Below are positions 12,161 through 23,525 of a DNA stretch of 32,109 nucleotides, in pieces (position 1 is the first letter of the stretch; every line of letters begins with the position of its first letter). The position numbers and the translations under genes are program-made. The DNA is from Nitrosopumilales archaeon. Lineage in GTDB: Archaea; Thermoproteota; Nitrososphaeria; Nitrososphaerales; Nitrososphaeraceae. The DNA lies in contig JBIQJB010000024.1 in assembly GCA_044507735.1 (NCBI GenBank), positions 1-32,109 of the forward strand, read 5' to 3'. The notes under the pieces are model-generated. The model worked only from the letters and a program-made list of their open reading frames with translations, ran no database searches and was not told where the DNA came from.

Positions 12161-13207
12161 ATGGATGTTGAAGAGCGCATTGCACTAGTGACGCGCGAGC
12201 CGACCGAGGAGGTCATTACCGCAGACGAACTACGGGCACTACTTGAGACAAAGGCCCACCCAAAGCACTACATTGGGCTTGAAATATCAGGAGTGTTGCA
12301 TCTCGGCAGCCTGGTTCTGACAGGATTCAAGATAAACGACTTTATCAAGGCAGGCATCAATACGACGGTCTTTCTTGCCGACTGGCACACCTACATCAAC
12401 GACAAGCTGGGTGGGGATTGGAACAGGATAAAAAAGATCTCACAATACTATGCAGAAGCGTTCAAGTTCTTTTGTCCTGGCGTAAGCGTCGTCCTCGGCA
12501 GCGACCTTTACAGGCAGACAGAGAACTATTGGGAGGACTTTGTGCGCTTCTCAAAGCACATGACGCTTGCAAGGACCATGCGGTCGCTCACCATAATGGG
12601 CAGGAGCGAGACGGACAAGAACCTCGACCTCTCGCAGCTGCTGTACCCTCCAATGCAGTCAGTGGACATCAAGGCGCTTGACCTTGACATAGTGCATGCT
12701 GGCATGGACCAGCGCAAGATACACATGCTGGTGAGGGAGATATTTCCCAAGCTTGGCTGGAAAGTGCCGGTGGTTGTCCACCATCACCTGCTGCCAGGTC
12801 TTTCAGAGCCAGTAACAATGGGCCTTGACGAGAATGCCGCAGAAGATGCCAGGATATCTAGCAAGATGAGCAAGAGCAAGCCGGGAAGCGGAATACTGAT
12901 CCATGATGATGAAAAGACGATCAGGGACAAGATTTCGAAGGCGTTCTGCCCTGTGGGAGTGGCCGCAGGTAACCCCATACTGGAGCTGGTACGCTATGTC
13001 ATCTTCCACGAATTTAGCGAGTTTGTAATAGAGCGGCCTGCGAAATATGGAGGCAACGTAACGTACGCAAGCTACAAGGATATAGAGCGCGATTTTGTTG
13101 AGAAAAAGATACACCCTATGGACCTAAAGAATGCCACCGCTACCTACATCAACAAGATAATCGAGCCGGTGCAGAGGCATTTTAAAGGAAAGGAACCGGA
13201 GCTCTAG
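12161..13207 (+). CDS. tyrS: Tyrosine--tRNA ligase (archaeal type)
   Basis: YIGLEISGVLHLGS (HIGH-like), LADWH, YPPMQSVDI, AGMDQRKIH, KMSKS and HPMDLK; ATG at 12161. Confidence 0.95.
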   Translation: MDVEERIALVTREPTEEVITADELRALLETKAHPKHYIGLEISGVLHLGSLVLTGFKINDFIKAGINTTVFLADWHTYINDKLGGDWNRIKKISQYYAEAFKFFCPGVSVVLGSDLYRQTENYWEDFVRFSKHMTLARTMRSLTIMGRSETDKNLDLSQLLYPPMQSVDIKALDLDIVHAGMDQRKIHMLVREIFPKLGWKVPVVVHHHLLPGLSEPVTMGLDENAAEDARISSKMSKSKPGSGILIHDDEKTIRDKISKAFCPVGVAAGNPILELVRYVIFHEFSEFVIERPAKYGGNVTYASYKDIERDFVEKKIHPMDLKNATATYINKIIEPVQRHFKGKEPEL

Positions 13208-13587
13208 ATCGCTTTCTTGGCCGCCGCGATGATCTTGGCGACTTCATCTGCAGGCGTTTCCTTCTCCATCGTGATGTAGTAAAAGTACTCTTCGCTTGAA
13301 ATGGTCAGTATCTTGACCTTCTCGTTTTCTGTAAAAGTATATTCGGTCTTGCCAATGGAATCTTCAAAGTTCTTGCGAAGCTGGTTCCTCGTCGCCTCGA
13401 TAAAGTATTCGTTTCGGGCCTCGTCCGGCTTTAGCAGAGGCACGACTCCCTTCCGGAGGCCGCCGGCTAGTGTGCGGCCAAACTTGTTCATGATGCCAGC
13501 GTAGCGTATTCGCGGAGATATTCCAAGGATGCTGTTGCATTTCTCCTTGTATTTCTGCGTGTTTGGATCTGCCTGAGGCTTGGACAT
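13204..13587 (-). CDS. Hypothetical small alpha/beta protein (roadblock/profilin-like, thaumarchaeal type)
   Basis: ILGISPRIRYAGIMNKFGRTLAGGLRKGVVPLL pattern; convergent with tyrS. Confidence 0.7.
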   Translation of the reverse strand: MSKPQADPNTQKYKEKCNSILGISPRIRYAGIMNKFGRTLAGGLRKGVVPLLKPDEARNEYFIEATRNQLRKNFEDSIGKTEYTFTENEKVKILTISSEEYFYYITMEKETPADEVAKIIAAAKKAI

Positions 13588-15710: not shown

Positions 15711-16136
15711 CTAGCGCATCGTCTTTAGTATGATTACAGTATTGGTGTCTGATACGCCCTCTATCTTGCGTATGTCATCTATACACTTGTTGATCTCCGC
15801 TATCGCCGGTGCTGCAATAATTGCGGCAATGTCGTATTGGCCAGTTATTTCGTAGACCACTTCGACTCCCCCAAGTTTCATCAGCCTGCCAGAGACTGCG
15901 GAGGTGTCCGCGGTCGATGTTACAGAGATCAGCGTTATAGCACTGGTCTTGTCACTTGCACCGAGTTCGATGGTAAAGCGCTTAATGATCCCGGTGTCTA
16001 CAAGGTTCTTGACCCTGCGCCTTACGGCCGATTCTGAAAGGCCTATGTCGTTAGCGATCTCCACAAACGCCTTGCGCGAATCTGCCTGCAGTATGCGGAT
16101 TATCTTTTCGTCTGTTTCATCAATGTTAGCTGACAT
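15711..16136 (-). CDS. lysM: Lrp/AsnC family regulator LysM
   Basis: IDETDEKIIRILQADSR...GLSESAVRRRVKNL HTH plus RAM domain VYEITGQYD; last gene of the lysW cluster. Confidence 0.88.
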   Translation of the reverse strand: MSANIDETDEKIIRILQADSRKAFVEIANDIGLSESAVRRRVKNLVDTGIIKRFTIELGASDKTSAITLISVTSTADTSAVSGRLMKLGGVEVVYEITGQYDIAAIIAAPAIAEINKCIDDIRKIEGVSDTNTVIILKTMR

Positions 16137-17307
16137 TCCGTCTCTTTTCCTCGTTAGTCAATACATTGTCCATTATATCAATTGCGCGGGAAACCGTCGT
16201 TTCATCCATTACGAGTGGCGGAAGAAGTCTTATGATGTTTCTTCCCGAATATAGCATCAGCAGTCCATTGCGAATTCCGTCAAAGAGCACATCCTTCACC
16301 TCGAAGCGGAGCTCCACACCCAGCATCATACCGAGGCCTCTCACTTCTCGAATTATCTTGTGCTTCTCCTTTAGCCTGTTCAGACCCTCTTTCCAGTGCT
16401 TTCCTACCTTGGCCGCGTTTTCAACCAGCTTGTCTTCGGTCAGAGCTTCAAGCGTAGCGGTACCTGCTGCGCAAGCTATTGGGCTTCCGCCAAACGTTGA
16501 CGAATGCTCGCCCAGCTTTGTTGCTTCAATTATCGCTGGTTTTGCAAGTATCAGCCCCATCGGGATGCCCCCTGCGATTCCCTTTGCAAGGCACATGATG
16601 TCCGGCGTGGTGTTCCAGTTCTGCCCAGCCCACATCTTGCCCGTCCTGCCAAGGCCCGCTTGTATTTCGTCGAATATCAGCACAAGGTTGCGCCTGTCAC
16701 AGATCTCCCTTATCTTTGGCAGGAGGTCGTCCGGTGGCACTATGATTCCCGTCTCTCCCTGAATCGGCTCCAGGATCACAGTCCCAACTGCATCGTCGAT
16801 GGCCTCTTCCAGCTTGGACGGGTCGCTGTATGGGACGAACTTGACTCCATCCAAAAGCGGCATGAACGATTTTCGGTATTTTTCGTTATATGTTACTGAA
16901 AGTGCGCCGAACGTTTTGCCATGGTACGCGCCGTTCATAGCTATCACGCCGTGCTTGCCAGTGTATTTGCGGGCGAACTTGAGAGCACCTTCGACAGATT
17001 CAGCGCCACTGTTTGTAAAGAACATCTTGCTCAAACCCGGCGGAGCAATGGTCGACATTTTTTCCATGAACTTGAGCCGAGTGTCGTTGTAGACTGACAT
17101 GTGCGCAGTTATCAGTGTGTCTGCCTGCCTTTTGATTGCAGCCACAACCCGGTCGTTGCAGTGGCCGACCAATGCAACGCCATAGCCTCCCATACAGTCG
17201 ATGTATTCCTTGCCGCTCGTGTCCCAAACCCTTGCGCCCTTGCCCCGGGCAAGGTTCACAGGAAACCGCTGGTAAAGCGCTGCCAGGTACTGGTCTTCTG
17301 TATTCAT
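16126..17307 (-). CDS. lysJ: [LysW]-aminoadipate/glutamate semialdehyde aminotransferase (LysJ/ArgD)
   Basis: Class III aminotransferase motifs NSGAESVE, YHGKT, EPIQGETG, FDEIQAGLGRTG, AKGIAGG and STFGG. Confidence 0.93.
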   Translation of the reverse strand: MNTEDQYLAALYQRFPVNLARGKGARVWDTSGKEYIDCMGGYGVALVGHCNDRVVAAIKRQADTLITAHMSVYNDTRLKFMEKMSTIAPPGLSKMFFTNSGAESVEGALKFARKYTGKHGVIAMNGAYHGKTFGALSVTYNEKYRKSFMPLLDGVKFVPYSDPSKLEEAIDDAVGTVILEPIQGETGIIVPPDDLLPKIREICDRRNLVLIFDEIQAGLGRTGKMWAGQNWNTTPDIMCLAKGIAGGIPMGLILAKPAIIEATKLGEHSSTFGGSPIACAAGTATLEALTEDKLVENAAKVGKHWKEGLNRLKEKHKIIREVRGLGMMLGVELRFEVKDVLFDGIRNGLLMLYSGRNIIRLLPPLVMDETTVSRAIDIMDNVLTNEEKRRNVS

Positions 17308-18107
17308 TTTGGAGTTATCACCGTGCAGTTATTGTGAGCAATCGCGGAGGAAATTGGGTTCTCGACTTGACCGGATGCGATGATCGCTTCCTTGACTCCC
17401 ATCTCAAGGGCCTCGGTGCAGGCAAGCACCTTCTTCTCCATCCCAAATCCTATCTTTGGCAGCGCGGCCTTGGCCTGCTCCAGCGTCATCGAGGTAACCA
17501 GCTTTTCGTTGAGCATGAGCCCGTTGACATTTGTGATGAATATAACCTTGTCTGCCTTTACCCCACCTGCGACATATGCAGCCGCCCTGTCTCCGTCAAC
17601 ATTGAGAAAATCATATTCTTCGCTCAGTGCAATTGGTGACACCACTGGCACATAGCCACTGTCAACCAGATTGTTCAGAAGTGTGGGATCAACTGCGTTT
17701 ATCTTGCCGGTGTAGCCGCCGTCAATCATCATTTTTCTCCCCTTTTCGTTTATTATCAACAGTTTCTTCTTGCGTTCCGCCTTTAGTATGCCCCCGTCAA
17801 TCCCTGCAATCCCCACAGCCTTGATACCCTGCCGGAGCAGCATGCCGGTGATGGCCTTGTTTATCTTGCCCGACATTACCATCGTGTAGATTTCCGCGGT
17901 TTCCTTGTCAGTGTATCTGCTGCGCACCCCACCGGGGGAGACAATGAATTTCTGTTCCTTGCCCAGCTTTGTGGCGGTAGCTGTAACTTCTTTGCCACCA
18001 CCATGCACAAAGACAAGCTTGTCCTTTCCAGCTATTGCCTTGATATCTGTCAGAGTAGAGGGGTGTAGCCCGTCTACTACGCTTCCGCCTATCTTGATGA
18101 CTATCAT
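17304..18107 (-). CDS. lysZ: [LysW]-aminoadipate/glutamate kinase (LysZ/ArgB)
   Basis: VIKIGGS, VHGGG, SRYTD, GGYTGKI, LNVDGDRAA and GMEKK. Confidence 0.93.
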   Translation of the reverse strand: MIVIKIGGSVVDGLHPSTLTDIKAIAGKDKLVFVHGGGKEVTATATKLGKEQKFIVSPGGVRSRYTDKETAEIYTMVMSGKINKAITGMLLRQGIKAVGIAGIDGGILKAERKKKLLIINEKGRKMMIDGGYTGKINAVDPTLLNNLVDSGYVPVVSPIALSEEYDFLNVDGDRAAAYVAGGVKADKVIFITNVNGLMLNEKLVTSMTLEQAKAALPKIGFGMEKKVLACTEALEMGVKEAIIASGQVENPISSAIAHNNCTVITPK

Positions 18108-19156
18108 ACCGGTGTCAGCGGGGTGTATTTCAGACCATCGGTCTCATCGTAGCCGGCCATAACGTTCATGACCTGTATCGCAGATCCGGCTGCTCCCTTC
18201 ATCAGGTTGTCTGACGCAGAAAGTGCCACTATCCTCTGGTTATATTCGTCTATGTCAAAGCCCACGTCGCAAAAGTTCGATCCTACCACAAACTTGGGAT
18301 CGGGGAACTTGTAGAGGCCCTTCTTGTCTCGTATCAGCCTGACAAAAGGCTCATTCTTGTACGAGTTGCGATACATCTTCCAAAGTTCAAGCTCTTCTAC
18401 CTGTCTCTTTAGGAAAGTGTGGTTGGTCGTCAGTATGCCCCTGACAATGTTGACTGCATGTGGACTCATGCTCACCTTGATCTGCTTTTTCGCTATCGCT
18501 GAAAGCTCTTGCTCGATTTCCCCTGTATGCCTGTGCTTTGCGGGCTTGTATGGCCTAACTACACCATAGCGCATTGCATGGTGGGTGCCAGCATTGGCCT
18601 TCTGCCCCGCGCCTGACGAGCCGATCTTGCTGTCTACCACCACGTGATCGGTGTCTATCAGGTTGTTTTCAATGAGCGGCTTTAGTGCAAGCAGCGAAGT
18701 GACTGCCATGCAGCCAGGGCATGACACCAGCTGAGCGTTCTTGATCTCCTCGCGGTGAAGCTCCGGCACGCCATAGACAGACTTGCTCAACATATCAGGG
18801 AATGGGTGCTCCCAACCGTACCATCTGACATAGTCCTTGGGGTTTTTGAGACGGAAATCAGCCGACAGGTCGATTACTTTCATGCCCCTGTCGTACAGAT
18901 CTTTGACTATCTTGTTCGCTTTGCCGTGTGGCACCGATGTGAACACTAGATCGCAATTGTTTGCCATCTTTTCAGTATCCATTGGCGAGAAAGTGATGTC
19001 AATGAATCCCTTCAGGCTCGGGTGGACGCGGTGCACATATTCACCGGCTTTTTGGCGCGATGTAACCATGCTTACTTCCACTTTTGGGTGTGTTACCAGT
19101 AGGCGGAGCAACTCGCCGCCCACATATCCAGAAGCTCCAACGACTCCGACTTTCAT
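18104..19156 (-). CDS. lysY: [LysW]-phosphate reductase / N-acetyl-gamma-glutamyl-phosphate reductase (LysY/ArgC)
   Basis: GVVGASGYVGGELLRLL, VIDLSADFRL, PGC, SSGAG, HRH and DNLMKGAAG; ATG at 19156. Confidence 0.95.
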   Translation of the reverse strand: MKVGVVGASGYVGGELLRLLVTHPKVEVSMVTSRQKAGEYVHRVHPSLKGFIDITFSPMDTEKMANNCDLVFTSVPHGKANKIVKDLYDRGMKVIDLSADFRLKNPKDYVRWYGWEHPFPDMLSKSVYGVPELHREEIKNAQLVSCPGCMAVTSLLALKPLIENNLIDTDHVVVDSKIGSSGAGQKANAGTHHAMRYGVVRPYKPAKHRHTGEIEQELSAIAKKQIKVSMSPHAVNIVRGILTTNHTFLKRQVEELELWKMYRNSYKNEPFVRLIRDKKGLYKFPDPKFVVGSNFCDVGFDIDEYNQRIVALSASDNLMKGAAGSAIQVMNVMAGYDETDGLKYTPLTPV

Positions 19157-19194
19157 TAGCAATTCTTCTCCCTTATTGCAGCAGAATTGTGCAT
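19156..19194 (-). CDS. Putative 12-aa leader peptide (uORF) MHNSAAIREKNC, coupled to lysY by a TAATG overlap
   Basis: ATG at 19194 lies at essentially the same distance from the TATA box as the argG ATG does in the duplicate promoter; its TAA overlaps the lysY ATG. Confidence 0.4.
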   Translation of the reverse strand: MHNSAAIREKNC

Positions 19195-19285: not shown

Positions 19286-20146
19286 TCACTTCCTTGCGAC
19301 CGTGACTGCATAATCTATCATTGCGCCAGGGATATCGGTCTTTGATACGCTGGCGGCGCCGTGGAACTCTACGGTGTTGTTGACTTCGTGTACTATCAGC
19401 CCACGCTTCTTGTCCTCCATCATGTCGACGCCCACAATACCTCCGCCGACTGCGTTGGCAGCTTTAATCGCCAAATCCTCAAGCTCTTTTGTAATCGGTG
19501 CAAGTTCCGCTTTGCCGCCACGGGCCACATTTGTGCGCCACTCTTTTTCTGCAGAGTAGCGATAAATGGCAGTTACAACGCTGTTACCTACTACGATGCA
19601 CCTTATGTCGCGTGGCGGCCTGTCAATCATTTCCTGAACGTAATAGATACGTGCAAATGGACTGTCGTCTTCTTCTCTCATTTCCACTATCATGCTAGCG
19701 GTCTCCGCGTCGCGCAGCGGGAAGACTCCCCTACCCCATGACCCAACGATTGGTTTGAGCACTAGCGGAAATCCGGTCTTCTGTATCGTTTCTAGTGCGC
19801 TCTCCGCGCTGAAGGCAAACTGTGTTCGGGGCGTCGGGATGTTGTTCTGTGCCAGCACAAGCGAGGTTATCAGCTTGTTGCCACAGGTCTCGGCCGCCTT
19901 GAACTTGTTTATCACGCTGAATCCCAGGTGTTCAAGACAGGCTGTGAGATAGAGCCCGCGGTAGTGGCTCACGCTCCTCTGCAGTATCACGTCGCCAAAA
20001 GAAAAGTCGTTCTTTTTGCTGTCGGTGCTGACAACAACAGTTTTTGCGTCCACTATCTGCGCTTTTATGCCCTTGCTCTGCGCCTTTTCATAAAGGGCCT
20101 TCTCTTCAAAGCGCACCTTGTCATAAATGATAGAGAGCTCTACCAT
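19286..20146 (-). CDS. lysX: LysW ligase, ATP-grasp (LysX/ArgX)
   Basis: KPIVGSWGRG, YVQE, RDIR, WRTNVARGG, GVD and EVN; directly follows lysW. Clustering with argG suggests a glutamate-accepting (ArgX-like) enzyme. Confidence 0.92.
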   Translation of the reverse strand: MVELSIIYDKVRFEEKALYEKAQSKGIKAQIVDAKTVVVSTDSKKNDFSFGDVILQRSVSHYRGLYLTACLEHLGFSVINKFKAAETCGNKLITSLVLAQNNIPTPRTQFAFSAESALETIQKTGFPLVLKPIVGSWGRGVFPLRDAETASMIVEMREEDDSPFARIYYVQEMIDRPPRDIRCIVVGNSVVTAIYRYSAEKEWRTNVARGGKAELAPITKELEDLAIKAANAVGGGIVGVDMMEDKKRGLIVHEVNNTVEFHGAASVSKTDIPGAMIDYAVTVARK

Positions 20147-20325
20147 TATTGTCCCCAGTCTTCGCCTACTGTTTCTGCCGGCTTCAGCTCAACCTTGTCC
20201 CCACTCCTTGAGGCGATTTCATAATCGCCTCCACAGTCGGGGCACGTAATGATCTCCCCGACGACCGAGTCTTCTGGAACGCTGATGTCGGCTCCACATT
20301 CTTGGCATTCAACTTTTGATCCCAT
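20146..20325 (-). CDS. lysW: Amino-group carrier protein LysW/ArgW with C-terminal EDWGQ
   Basis: MGSKVECQECG...CPDCG...PAETVGEDWGQ*: two CxxC and an acidic tail; TAATG overlaps with argG and lysX. Confidence 0.93.
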   Translation of the reverse strand: MGSKVECQECGADISVPEDSVVGEIITCPDCGGDYEIASRSGDKVELKPAETVGEDWGQ

Positions 20326-21545
20326 TATTTTTTTCCTCCTTCTTGTTTTTTGTCTGAAATCGCATCTGCAGCCACCGAGTTTGCGATGATGGACTGCAGG
20401 CCCCAAAGCTCAACGAATCCCTTTGCCAGACTCTGGTCAAAGGTAGACCCAGCGGCATAAGTCGCCAGATCGTTCTTGTACAGGGAATATTTCGATTCCC
20501 TTCCAACCACCCGGAGAGATCCCTTTTGCATCTTCAGCCTTACTTTTCCGGAGACTCGCACCTGAGTCGCATCTATAAACTTATCCAAGTCATTGCGCAA
20601 CGGGTCTTGCCACAATCCGGCATATGCTAGCCAGCTCCACTGATCGTCAACCATGCGCTTGAATGCAAGCTCGTGTTTTGTCAGCACCATCTTTTCCAGA
20701 TCCTTGTGCGCTTCAATTATAGTAACTGCGGCAGGCGCTTCATACACCTCTCTTGACTTGATGCCCACCATTCTGTCTTCAATGTGATCTACAATCCCAA
20801 CTCCATGTGCCCCGGCCCTGTCATTCACATATTGAATAAGGTCAATGAGAGGCATGTGCTTGCCGTCAACGGCTATGGGCACACCCTTCTCAAACTCAAT
20901 CTCGATATATCCAGCCTTGTCATTCTGGAAGTTGATATACTGAAATGCTTCCTCTGGCGGTTCAAAATTAGCATCTTCGATGTTGCCGCCCTCAACTGCC
21001 CGGCCCCAAAGGTTAAGGTCGATGCTATATTTCTTGGCCTCTGCGCTTATTGGGATGTTTTGCTCTTTTGCAAACGTCATTTCCACGTCTCGGGTTAGAT
21101 TCATGTCCCTGATGGGCGCAATGATCTTTAACTTTGGATTTAGCGCGCGCATCGTTACATCGAACCGGATTTGGTCGTTCCCCTTGCCAGTGCAACCATG
21201 TGCTATAGAGATCGCGCCCTCTTTGTTTGCGACTTCAACTGCCTTTGCAGCAATCAGGGGCCGTGCCAATGCAGTTGCAAGCGGATACTTGCCCTGATAC
21301 AGGCCGTTTGCCTTGATGCTAGGAACGACGTAGTCAAGAGCAAACTCTTCTCGGGCGTCAACATAGACGTGTTTTATTGCTCCGATCGCTTTGGCCTTTC
21401 GCTCGATCTCCTTAAAGTCGTCTTCCTGTCCGCAGTCAACGGTAACAGTTATGACATCCAGCTTGTGCAGCACCTGCAGGTATCTTATGCATACCGAAGT
21501 GTCCAAGCCTCCCGAGTAGGCCAAAACGACCTTGCCATTACTCAT
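20325..21545 (-). CDS. argG: Argininosuccinate synthase
   Basis: VVLAYSGGLDTS, ALARP, HGCTGKGNDQIRF, YSIDLNLWGR and GIKSREVYEAP; ATG 21545 is about 29 nt below the TATA box. Confidence 0.97.
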   Translation of the reverse strand: MSNGKVVLAYSGGLDTSVCIRYLQVLHKLDVITVTVDCGQEDDFKEIERKAKAIGAIKHVYVDAREEFALDYVVPSIKANGLYQGKYPLATALARPLIAAKAVEVANKEGAISIAHGCTGKGNDQIRFDVTMRALNPKLKIIAPIRDMNLTRDVEMTFAKEQNIPISAEAKKYSIDLNLWGRAVEGGNIEDANFEPPEEAFQYINFQNDKAGYIEIEFEKGVPIAVDGKHMPLIDLIQYVNDRAGAHGVGIVDHIEDRMVGIKSREVYEAPAAVTIIEAHKDLEKMVLTKHELAFKRMVDDQWSWLAYAGLWQDPLRNDLDKFIDATQVRVSGKVRLKMQKGSLRVVGRESKYSLYKNDLATYAAGSTFDQSLAKGFVELWGLQSIIANSVAADAISDKKQEGGKK

Positions 21546-21572
21546 GAATATATCGGTGCCGACCAAGCTCTA

Positions 21573-21632
21573 CATTTATATTTTTTGGTCAAGAATGACC
21601 TAAATCAGGGTGATACTGACCGATGCTGGTCA
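21573..21632 (-). promoter_or_regulatory. argG promoter (TATA/BRE) with GGTCA-N4-TGACC operator array overlapping the divergent gene start
   Basis: CATTTATATTTTTTGGTCAAGAATGACCTAA, then TGACC at 21617-21621 and GGTCA at 21628-21632; ungapped match to 19223-19282. Confidence 0.8.
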
Positions 21633-22315
21633 ATAATGAAAAATCGATAACAAACGCAGTGAAGGAGGTCGTCAACAACGACCTGTCGTTCCAAGATTCG
21701 CTTCAGCGCGATTATTGCAACATAAGCGCTCTTGCACGTATAATCAAGCCTCAGGTGGACCAGTTGCTTGGTGGCAAGAACACGAGCATAGAGAGCATCG
21801 TCACTGCGTTAAAGAGGTCAAGACGCGACTATGACGTGCCAGAAAAGCCGATAGCATCCATACTTGCAGGAAGCACCATTAGCGTCAAGACAGACGTAGC
21901 CAAGGTCTCTGCAAAAAAGAGCAAGAAGACAATTGAAAAGGTTGCCAGAGCGATGACGCAGAACGTTGGCAACTTTATCAGCGTGTCAGAGAGCATCATG
22001 TCTATCACGCTCGTCTTTGACGACGCACTTCTTGACGAAGTCAAGGGGATGTTTGCGCATGACGACATACTGGAAATTGAAGATGACCTGGCTGCAATAA
22101 TCGTCCATAGCCCCGAAGAGATAATCAAGACGCCAGGATGCGCGATAGCTTTTTACAACCAGCTAGCGCGTCGGCACATCAACATAGAAGACACGGTCAG
22201 CTGCTACACAGACACGATAGTACTTGTAAGGATGGATCAGGTGGGCAAGGCATTTAACGCGTTGACAGACCTCATATCCGGCTCAAGGAAGATGCCCAAG
22301 AAAAAGCACAGATAA
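21623..22315 (+). CDS. Putative amino-acid-responsive regulator: N-terminal HTH-like domain + ACT domains
   Basis: N-terminal CNISALARII...SIVTALKR helices; C-terminal ACT-like TPGCAIAFYNQLARRHINIEDTVSCYTDTIVLV; divergent from argG. Confidence 0.75.
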   Translation: MLVNNEKSITNAVKEVVNNDLSFQDSLQRDYCNISALARIIKPQVDQLLGGKNTSIESIVTALKRSRRDYDVPEKPIASILAGSTISVKTDVAKVSAKKSKKTIEKVARAMTQNVGNFISVSESIMSITLVFDDALLDEVKGMFAHDDILEIEDDLAAIIVHSPEEIIKTPGCAIAFYNQLARRHINIEDTVSCYTDTIVLVRMDQVGKAFNALTDLISGSRKMPKKKHR

Positions 22316-22619
22316 GGCCGCTGCCGCTCTCCCTCGCAGCCATTTGTACCGATATAGGAAGCTTGACTATGACCATAGCTAAAGCAAGCGAGCCCATGAT
22401 GGCCAAGCCCCGAATTTATCTACATCACCTTGATGCCACCACGAGCAGCAGCCATTCTGCCTTGTATTTGATATGTCGTACCAGCCCGCGGACAAGACTC
22501 AACATGGTGTATATACATTCACGAACATTTTGTATTGGCTTGGAGGTAGCGAAATCTTCTTCCAGTACGCTTCAAGAAACCATGCAAAGTTTATTTCATG
22601 CAGCTTGGGAAAAGCCCTT

Positions 22620-23525
22620 GTGTACCGGCGTTACACGCTAGACGAGGTAAAGCGCAAGATAGTCGATGTTTTGCAGAGCGCCGGAACCGGCCTGTCTGGA
22701 ATCGAGCTCGCAGACAAGACAGGCATCAACAGGATGACCATAACCAAATACCTGGACGTCATGCATGCTATGGGTCTGGTCAAAAAGAAGAAGACGGGCA
22801 ACGTCAACGTGTGGTTCCTCGAAACAGGGGTCGCGGATATCGAGTTTCCAGTCAACTATGTCCAGGTGCAGCAAAAGCTGATAAGTGCAATTCTGGCAGG
22901 AGAAGAAGAGCAAGCGCGCAGGATCCTGCTGAGTGTCCTAAATTCTAATGTTGACCAAGTAAAGGTGCTGACTGACGTGGTCATGCCAGTAGTAAACACT
23001 GTTGGTGAGCTCTACAGCAGGGGCAGGCTTGACAAGACCGAGAGGGCGTTCCTCCTCAACCTCATCATGGAGCTAATAGATCTTGTAAAATTTAATGTCA
23101 GGCCCACGGAGCAGAAAGCAAATGCCAATGTGCTTGTTGTCGCCGGCTCTGGAGACAAAGTCCATGCAGCCAAGAGTGCAGCCGTAGCGTTTTCTGTGCT
23201 TGGGTGGGATTCGATCTACATCGGAGATGTTGAGGAACAGATTGATCCCTTCTTTGATATCGACTTTCAGCGCTACATTTCCCGCGTCTGGAGCAACAAG
23301 CGCGGCCTGATGGTTATTTGCATATTTTCGTCTGGCGAAGGATCGCTCAGGTTCCTCTCATCTACAGCCAAGGCAATGAAGGGCAGGATTAGAGGAGAGC
23401 TTCGTATCGCTGTGGTTGCCATCCCGGAGCTGCAGGCTATAGCCGAAGAGAACTCGGACTATGTCGCAAAGGACCTGCTGTCGTTGGTAGAATGGGCTGA
23501 GCGTCAGTACAACATTGTGAAGTAG
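22620..23525 (+). CDS. wHTH transcriptional regulator with B12-binding-like cap/Rossmann domain
   Basis: GLSGIELADKTGINRMTITKYL HTH; DVVMPVVNTVGELYSRG cap helix; H...GWDSIYIG. GTG 22620 preferred (TTTATTT about 25-30 nt upstream). Confidence 0.75.
   Translation: MYRRYTLDEVKRKIVDVLQSAGTGLSGIELADKTGINRMTITKYLDVMHAMGLVKKKKTGNVNVWFLETGVADIEFPVNYVQVQQKLISAILAGEEEQARRILLSVLNSNVDQVKVLTDVVMPVVNTVGELYSRGRLDKTERAFLLNLIMELIDLVKFNVRPTEQKANANVLVVAGSGDKVHAAKSAAVAFSVLGWDSIYIGDVEEQIDPFFDIDFQRYISRVWSNKRGLMVICIFSSGEGSLRFLSSTAKAMKGRIRGELRIAVVAIPELQAIAEENSDYVAKDLLSLVEWAERQYNIVK

Follow-up and report, generated by a model that had tools for sequence, protein, structure and literature searches.

Glutamine-ended LysW amino-group carrier proteins in ammonia-oxidising archaea, encoded without the ligation glutamate

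Introduction

To our knowledge, all characterised LysW pathways rely on the γ-carboxyl group of the terminal glutamate of the carrier protein; glutamine has no γ-carboxyl. In the available part of PMC10433800, the α-amino group of the substrate is described as joined to the γ-carboxyl of that terminal glutamate, and recognition of the C-terminal EDWGE by the ligase LysX is reported to occur through a GSWGR motif. The same part of the article deals with the ArgW of Natrinema gari J7-2, which serves an archaeal carrier route to arginine and, as in the locus described here, has an EDWG-type tail and an adjoining ArgX; the E54A change in ArgW made the strain auxotrophic for arginine, and LC-MS/MS located the adduct on Glu54 (PMC10433800). 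Whereas the Natrinema carrier needs Glu54 (PMC10433800, available part), the natural terminal residue of LysW1, the protein reported on here, is glutamine, a variant that goes unmentioned there.

The LysW/ArgW proteins of Thermus thermophilus, Sulfolobus tokodaii/acidocaldarius and Thermococcus kodakarensis (PDB; 3wwl, 3vpb, 5k2m) resemble LysW1 in length, zinc ribbon, acidic tail and EDWG motif, and those systems share with the genome studied here the partners LysX with GSWGR, LysZ, LysY, LysJ, and LysK. The carriers in 3wwl, 3vpb and 5k2m end in glutamate, whose γ-carboxyl bears the substrate, whereas LysW1 ends in glutamine; unlike the Thermus, Sulfolobus and Thermococcus systems, this genome also has two carrier-ligase pairs for one downstream set. 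A metabolic model of Nitrosopumilus maritimus assumes the Sulfolobus scheme and, in the available part of the article, is silent on the LysW terminus (PMC6038301). In the open full-text literature, we found no prior mention of a glutamine-ended LysW or of EDWGQ.

Results and Discussion

The LysW1 locus

The window, which is the whole stretch of DNA analysed (32,109 nucleotides of the Nitrosopumilales archaeon assembly GCA_044507735.1), contains a cluster in the order ArgG, LysW1, LysX1, LysY, LysZ, LysJ, LysM, with every gene on the minus strand:

20325..21566 (-): ArgG, argininosuccinate synthase (NF001770, 533 bits, cut-off 334)
20146..20325 (-): LysW1, amino-group carrier protein, 59 aa, zinc ribbon, end GEDWGQ
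20151..20149 (-): terminal Gln codon of LysW1, CAA (Glu in characterised LysW proteins)
20148..20146 (-): stop codon of LysW1, TAA, read from the sequence
19286..20146 (-): LysX1, ATP-grasp ligase, predicted carrier loader (TIGR02144, 310.5 bits, cut-off 275.6)
18104..19162 (-): LysY/ArgC-type reductase (TIGR01850, 435.6 bits, cut-off 233.6)
17304..18107 (-): LysZ, [LysW]-aminoadipate/[LysW]-glutamate kinase (NF010662, 300 bits, cut-off 194)
16126..17307 (-): LysJ/ArgD-type aminotransferase (TIGR00707, 412.8 bits, cut-off 410)
15711..16136 (-): LysM, Lrp-type regulator, end of the cluster (NF040947, 200 bits, cut-off 180)

Translation of the minus-strand open reading frame at 20146..20325 gave a protein ending in AETVGEDWGQ, followed by the TAA stop. 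In profile searches LysW1 scored 93.9 bits against NF041070 (cut-off 75) and 49.9 bits against PF21344 (cut-off 27), and its four cysteines are arranged as CxxC...CxxC. Three solved LysW chains (PDB; 3vpb_E, 3wwl_A, 5k2m_E) aligned with it from end to end, their terminal glutamate falling on Gln 59, such that the C-terminal EDWGE with its ligation glutamate is represented by EDWGQ as encoded. Judged by its sequence, LysW1 is a LysW homologue, a variant without the ligation residue as encoded rather than a standard member.

An earlier note on this DNA had read the end of LysW1 as EDWGQ, with CAA followed by TAA, and this was correct: contigs of runs X2, X10, and X14, from three other studies, bridged the codon region 20146-20151 with 0 differing letters. 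Where the note left room for a glutamate codon, GAA, in reads or close orthologues, the contigs of the three studies and the sampled genomes of the genus carried CAA or CAG. A sequencing or assembly error, or a strain-specific mutation, is refuted by these contigs together with the glutamine ends of relatives described below, and we regard it as practically out of the question. The translational coupling of LysW1 on both sides, also put forward in that note, was confirmed, with TAATG at 20327..20323 common to the ArgG stop and the LysW1 start and TAATG at 20148..20144 common to the LysW1 stop and the start of LysX1, the ATG of which overlaps that stop. LysX1 contains the GSWGR motif and matched PDB 3vpd_A (2.3e-63) as well as TIGR00768, the RimK family of α-L-glutamate ligases (285 bits). 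For ArgG, the true start may lie downstream of the listed TTG. Divergent from ArgG, a 230-aa frame at 21623-22315 (+) resembled aspartate kinase only weakly, in the C-terminal portion of that enzyme (25.9 bits); a 350-aa frame at 22473-23525 (+) and a 127-aa frame at 13204-13587 (-) had no NCBIfam match.

The second carrier and the pathway content of the genome

A family search across the window's own assembly (2.33 Mb, 55 contigs, 97.1% complete) revealed exactly two LysW over cut-off, LysW1 and LysW2. The latter likewise ends in GEDWGQ and lies on contig C3 in a cluster of ArgH, an isopropylmalate/homocitrate-synthase-like gene, LysW2, LysX2, LysK, and Dph5. This LysK is the only one in the genome (TIGR01902, 280 bits, cut-off 163; NF003367, 290.8 bits, below the cut-off of 363; PDB 5xoy, 9.8e-52) and, with LysZ, LysY and LysJ in the window, it completes the LysW partner set, giving a genome in which two carrier-ligase pairs have one common set of downstream enzymes. 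The arginine and lysine assignments of the two ligases were made by gene context, the published 5-residue motif having given no assignment.

No glutamate-ended LysW and neither ArgJ nor DapA was found in this 97.1% complete draft, and its one LysA-like match was below cut-off (254.8 vs 297.9 bits). Because ArgJ and DapA were not found, the LysA-like match fell short and LysK is single, the carrier route looks like the genome's sole path to ornithine and lysine, with both carriers glutamine-ended.

In most genera of the family the two LysW clusters are joined in a single array, ArgG-W1-X1-Y-Z-J-(M)-HCS-W2-X2-K, whose LysW stops are ~6 kb from each other. The window's genus has them separated, on different contigs or, in the single-contig genomes G014, G070, and G101, 0.7-1.2 Mb apart. 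The window's genome also has two full-length archaeal AmoA matches (G000:C17:115287-115835 and G000:C9:29699-30247; 398.8 and 383.4 bits), compared with one in most sampled relatives.

Glutamine and glutamate ends within the family

For the comparison of relatives, W1 denotes the LysW copy followed by LysX-LysY and W2 the copy followed by LysX-LysK. Ends were surveyed with a degenerate nucleotide pattern for EDWG(Q/E)-stop, in which the matched letters give the Q or E state directly; its stop element, TRR, reads TGG too, which produced one false match, in G001. The pattern had 196 matches in 122 family genomes (18 genera) vs 2 for a reversed control pattern, so that chance does not account for it, and since a LysW profile search gave 195 matches in 121 family genomes, nearly all LysW in the family end in E or Q. 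Among the matches listed, with g12 not among them and g9 taken from the order-level sample, the W1/W2 states by genus were:

Q/Q: g1 (window's genus, 14/14 genomes), g3, g4, g6, g8, g10, g18
Single Q: g2, g14, g17, g9
Q/E: g5, g11, g16
E/Q: g13
E/E: g15

All 22 of the other sampled genomes of the window's genus had Q ends and no E end, and the terminal codon was CAA or CAG in every sampled genome of that genus, the first base never being G. An E-ended LysW was found neither in these 22 genomes nor in the 15 of g2, and several genomes of this combined set are single-contig. In G115 (g5) there was a third pattern match, E-ended, on another contig.

The earlier note had suggested that the Q end might mark an arginine-specific carrier. 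We rejected this, as Q occurs on both paralogues here and, elsewhere, on a copy that varies across genera: on W1 only in g5, g11, and g16, on W2 only in g13 and in Nitrosopumilaceae-type records, on both, or, in g15, on neither.

Distribution across the order and beyond

The order-level sample comprised 301 genomes (300 besides the window's own), which are kin and not independent samples; G035, G077, G218, and G335, flagged as unpublished, are included in the tallies, but none of the conclusions depends on them, and their removal shifts a count by one or two. By family, the numbers of genomes with each feature were:

f1 (window's family): Q ends 73/73; E ends 24/73; archaeal AmoA 69/73
f13: Q ends 72/73; E ends 72/73; archaeal AmoA 73/73
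f9: Q ends 7/11; E ends 11/11; archaeal AmoA 11/11
f4: Q ends 2/9; E ends 8/9; archaeal AmoA 9/9
Other 16 families of the order: Q ends 0/134; E ends 110/134; archaeal AmoA 0/134

Q ends in the order are thus confined to the four AmoA-bearing families, with 154/166 genomes vs 0/134 in these sets of kin genomes. Many genomes hold one E and one Q carrier, each pattern being matched by 72/73 f13 genomes; the f13 exceptions were G243, with two Q ends and no E, and G333, with two E ends and no Q.

Among named records, Q-ended zinc-ribbon LysW were present in Nitrososphaera, Nitrosocosmicus, Nitrosopumilus, Nitrosarchaeum, Nitrosotenuis, Nitrosotalea, Nitrosopelagicus, and Nitrosocaldus. That scan covered at least 80 loci, 9 of the 80 being without a zinc-ribbon match (5 frames without a zinc ribbon and 4 without a stop after the motif), and in at least 8 Nitrosopumilaceae-type loci an E-ended W1 lay ~5.8 kb from a Q-ended W2. 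The EDWGQ ends of other Thaumarchaeota mentioned in the earlier note are borne out by these eight named genera.

Relatives in a large protein collection (n=94) comprised 68 EDWGQ, 21 EDWGE and 1 EDCGQ ends, plus 4 ending elsewhere (truncated or frame-shifted). Outside the order, GEDWGQ-stop was present in 2/341 sampled genomes of the phylum, and the one checked was a real LysW. Among the 150 LysW representatives listed at 50% identity, the 149 new ones comprised 92 E, 18 Q and 39 without the motif, and the residue after the W/F/H-G motif was E or Q and no other. The Q types outside the order included one Candidatus Gottesmanbacteria record, the one named organism among ten diverse Q-type representatives, and one unrelated record from Jordarchaeia (Asgard), where a complete LysW(Q)-X-Y-Z-J-K operon includes an M20 LysK as its sole hydrolase. 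Read from the encoded proteins, LysW that ends in glutamine, without the defining ligation residue, is found across a major archaeal clade.

History of Q/E switching

A quick maximum-likelihood tree of concatenated LysX2 and LysK (26 rows, LG+G4, SH-aLRT support only, f4 left out) placed the E/E families f10, f12, and f14 outside a main clade with 100% support, which contained f9, Nitrosopumilaceae/Nitrosotaleaceae and the f1 rows and had W2 = Q at its base. Inside f1, W2 was E in g5, g11, g15, and g16, and W1 was Q save in g13 and g15; each of the two genera g15 and g13 had a Q/Q genus as its sister, with support of 92% and 99%, respectively. These data give at least seven E/Q changes, in both paralogues, with several forks not resolved and the place of origin uncertain. 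The f13 exceptions, G243 and G333, are shallow, and E/Q switching is thus continuing.

The Q/E state is fixed within genera, although variation occurs at the third base of that codon, in the Gly codon before it and in the stop codon. Because these adjacent synonymous sites vary around a fixed state, the Q/E state appears to be held by selection.

Comparison of ligases and release enzymes

The association between carrier ends and partner enzymes was investigated in a co-variation sample of 34 loci covering all four state combinations, from which a 627-aa frame in the LysX position was dropped for its length. No column separated 28 LysX with Q carriers from 27 with E carriers, and 34 columns, GSWGR included, were invariant among the 55 LysX compared. 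Within the family, two variable LysX1 columns distinguished 9 Q from 3 E, a distinction that did not extend to the other families. For LysK, 0 columns separated 20 proteins of Q-carrier genomes from 6 of E/E genomes; 22 columns differed from the outgroup LysK, yet were present in the E/E genus g15 too, and therefore followed phylogeny and not the trait. LysK stood directly after LysW2-LysX2 in 26/29 W2-type arrangements, the other 3 loci having ended or given no open reading frame there. At L169 (G130:C1:1225500-1235200), in an E/E genome of f10, the frame after the second LysW was 627 aa from stop to stop, or about LysX plus LysK in length, and may be a fusion.

Glutamine as a proposed removable cap

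In line with one of the options raised in the earlier note, and by analogy with a described protein-ligation system, we propose that LysW1 may be a working carrier encoded as a pro-form, the terminal glutamine being hydrolysed to glutamate with LysK as the likeliest catalyst, and we give this proposal about an even chance. The hydrolysis would release ammonia, the known cycle would then run, and uncapping would be needed once per LysW molecule. LysK would be the favoured catalyst in that it already cleaves the γ-glutamyl amide bond of LysW-Lys or LysW-Orn, and for this enzyme glutamine would present an identical acyl group, with ammonia in the role of the amine.

Several observations argue for the pro-form. 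Only E and Q alternate, and a single hydrolysis turns no residue but glutamine into glutamate; both paralogues switch although they have LysZ, LysY, LysJ, and LysK in common; no LysX column tracks Q/E, so that adaptation of the ligase is not seen; and the genome appears to need its carriers, given that both are Q-ended and that it has one LysK and no ArgJ or DapA that we could find. LysK in particular is suggested by its position next to LysW2-LysX2 and by the Jordarchaeia LysW(Q) operon, which has an M20 LysK and nothing else of the kind. Against a role for LysK, no LysK column tracks the trait (20 vs 6). Recognition by M20 enzymes of the ArgE/DapE type usually depends on the amino acid that leaves; ammonia offers none of its groups, so that LysK may be a poor glutaminase. 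Deamidation, its enzyme and the reason for keeping glutamine are what we infer rather than what we observed. A glutamine that was no more than tolerated would be expected to mix freely with glutamate, but each paralogue keeps its state within genera, and Q therefore seems to matter beyond what the pro-form model explains.

The ligase itself might instead use the Gln end directly, with LysX either spending ATP to activate the amide oxygen or drawing on bound ADP and phosphate to swap ammonia for the incoming amino acid, and the carrier would in any case be Glu-ended after the first cut by LysK. We know of no ATP-grasp ligase that uses a glutamine amide in such a way, and we consider direct use unlikely. 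The LysX comparison, with no column tracking Q/E, fits a ligase that accepts both ends, and translational coupling to LysX was seen for each of the Q carriers examined. There is also a precedent of sorts in Dop, a homologue of the Pup ligase, which acts on the amide of PupQ with an ATP-derived phosphate and for which its authors propose attack of the amide oxygen on ATP (PMC8599861, available part). Dop and PafA, however, have the glutamine-synthetase fold and not that of the ATP-grasp enzymes.

It is also improbable that uncapping is done by a separate amidase encoded at another place in the genome, with LysK not involved, even though the lack of trait-linked change in LysK would fit this. 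No extra hydrolase was found in either LysW cluster, and a genome-wide search for an EgtC-like hydrolase (PF13230, TIGR03442) matched PurF and three GlmS only, which are the genome's class-II amidotransferase matches, this being the amidase class searched. The three GlmS paralogues are full-length and lie on contigs C49, C37, and C47 (645-671 bits, NF001484), with PurF on C29.

We hold it quite doubtful that the substrate is placed on the free α-carboxyl of the terminal residue, in a RimK-like manner, with glutamine permanent. Such regiochemistry would agree with the membership of LysX in the RimK family (TIGR00768) and with the α-carboxyl that glutamine retains, and a permanent role for glutamine would account for a state fixed within genera for each paralogue. 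However, carriers switch between E and Q with one common set of LysZ, LysY, LysJ, and LysK, E and Q carriers stand side by side in many genomes (as in f13), no ligase column tracks the switch, and an idle side chain should allow residues besides E and Q, of which none appears. Finally, an inert or regulatory role for the Q carriers, with the work done by a Glu-ended LysW, as the earlier note had allowed for a second EDWGE carrier, would suit the many genomes with one carrier of each kind, but it is highly improbable given that the one other LysW here is Q-ended, that no E-ended LysW was found in the sampled g1 and g2 genomes, that the Q carriers show strong conservation and coupling to a LysX that is itself intact, and that no ArgJ or DapA bypass was found in the 97.1% complete draft.

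Significance and comparison with Pup

Ammonia-oxidising archaea are among the most abundant archaea on Earth. Nitrososphaera-type genomes have glutamine on both carriers, and the named ammonia-oxidiser genera examined encode glutamine there. With glutamine at the ligation position and no bypass found in this genome, the synthesis of arginine and lysine in these archaea must include a step yet to be described, which is missing from metabolic models built on the Sulfolobus scheme. More broadly, and as a tentative extension that we think has less in its favour than against it, ammonia-oxidising archaea may possess, in primary metabolism, a maturation like that of Pup and Dop, in which glutamine-capped arginine and lysine carriers have to be opened by LysK (or LysX), carrier activation is thereby tied to the presence of the last enzyme, and the cap is kept by selection, not drift.

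The described system on which this analogy draws is the Pup of actinobacteria, as presented in the available part of PMC8599861. Like the LysW family, Pup is small and is ligated by way of the carboxyl group on the side chain of a glutamate at its C-terminus, and just as LysW alternates between Q and E, Pup is encoded with glutamine in some lineages and glutamate in others (PMC8599861). PupQ is converted to PupE by Dop, which is the depupylase too, so that a single enzyme first takes off the glutamine and later splits the conjugate (PMC8599861). The enzymes differ, Dop being a ligase homologue that uses phosphate and LysK an M20 metallohydrolase (PMC8599861 for Dop). Pup and LysW have no sequence relationship, and the likeness between them is an analogy of logic only.
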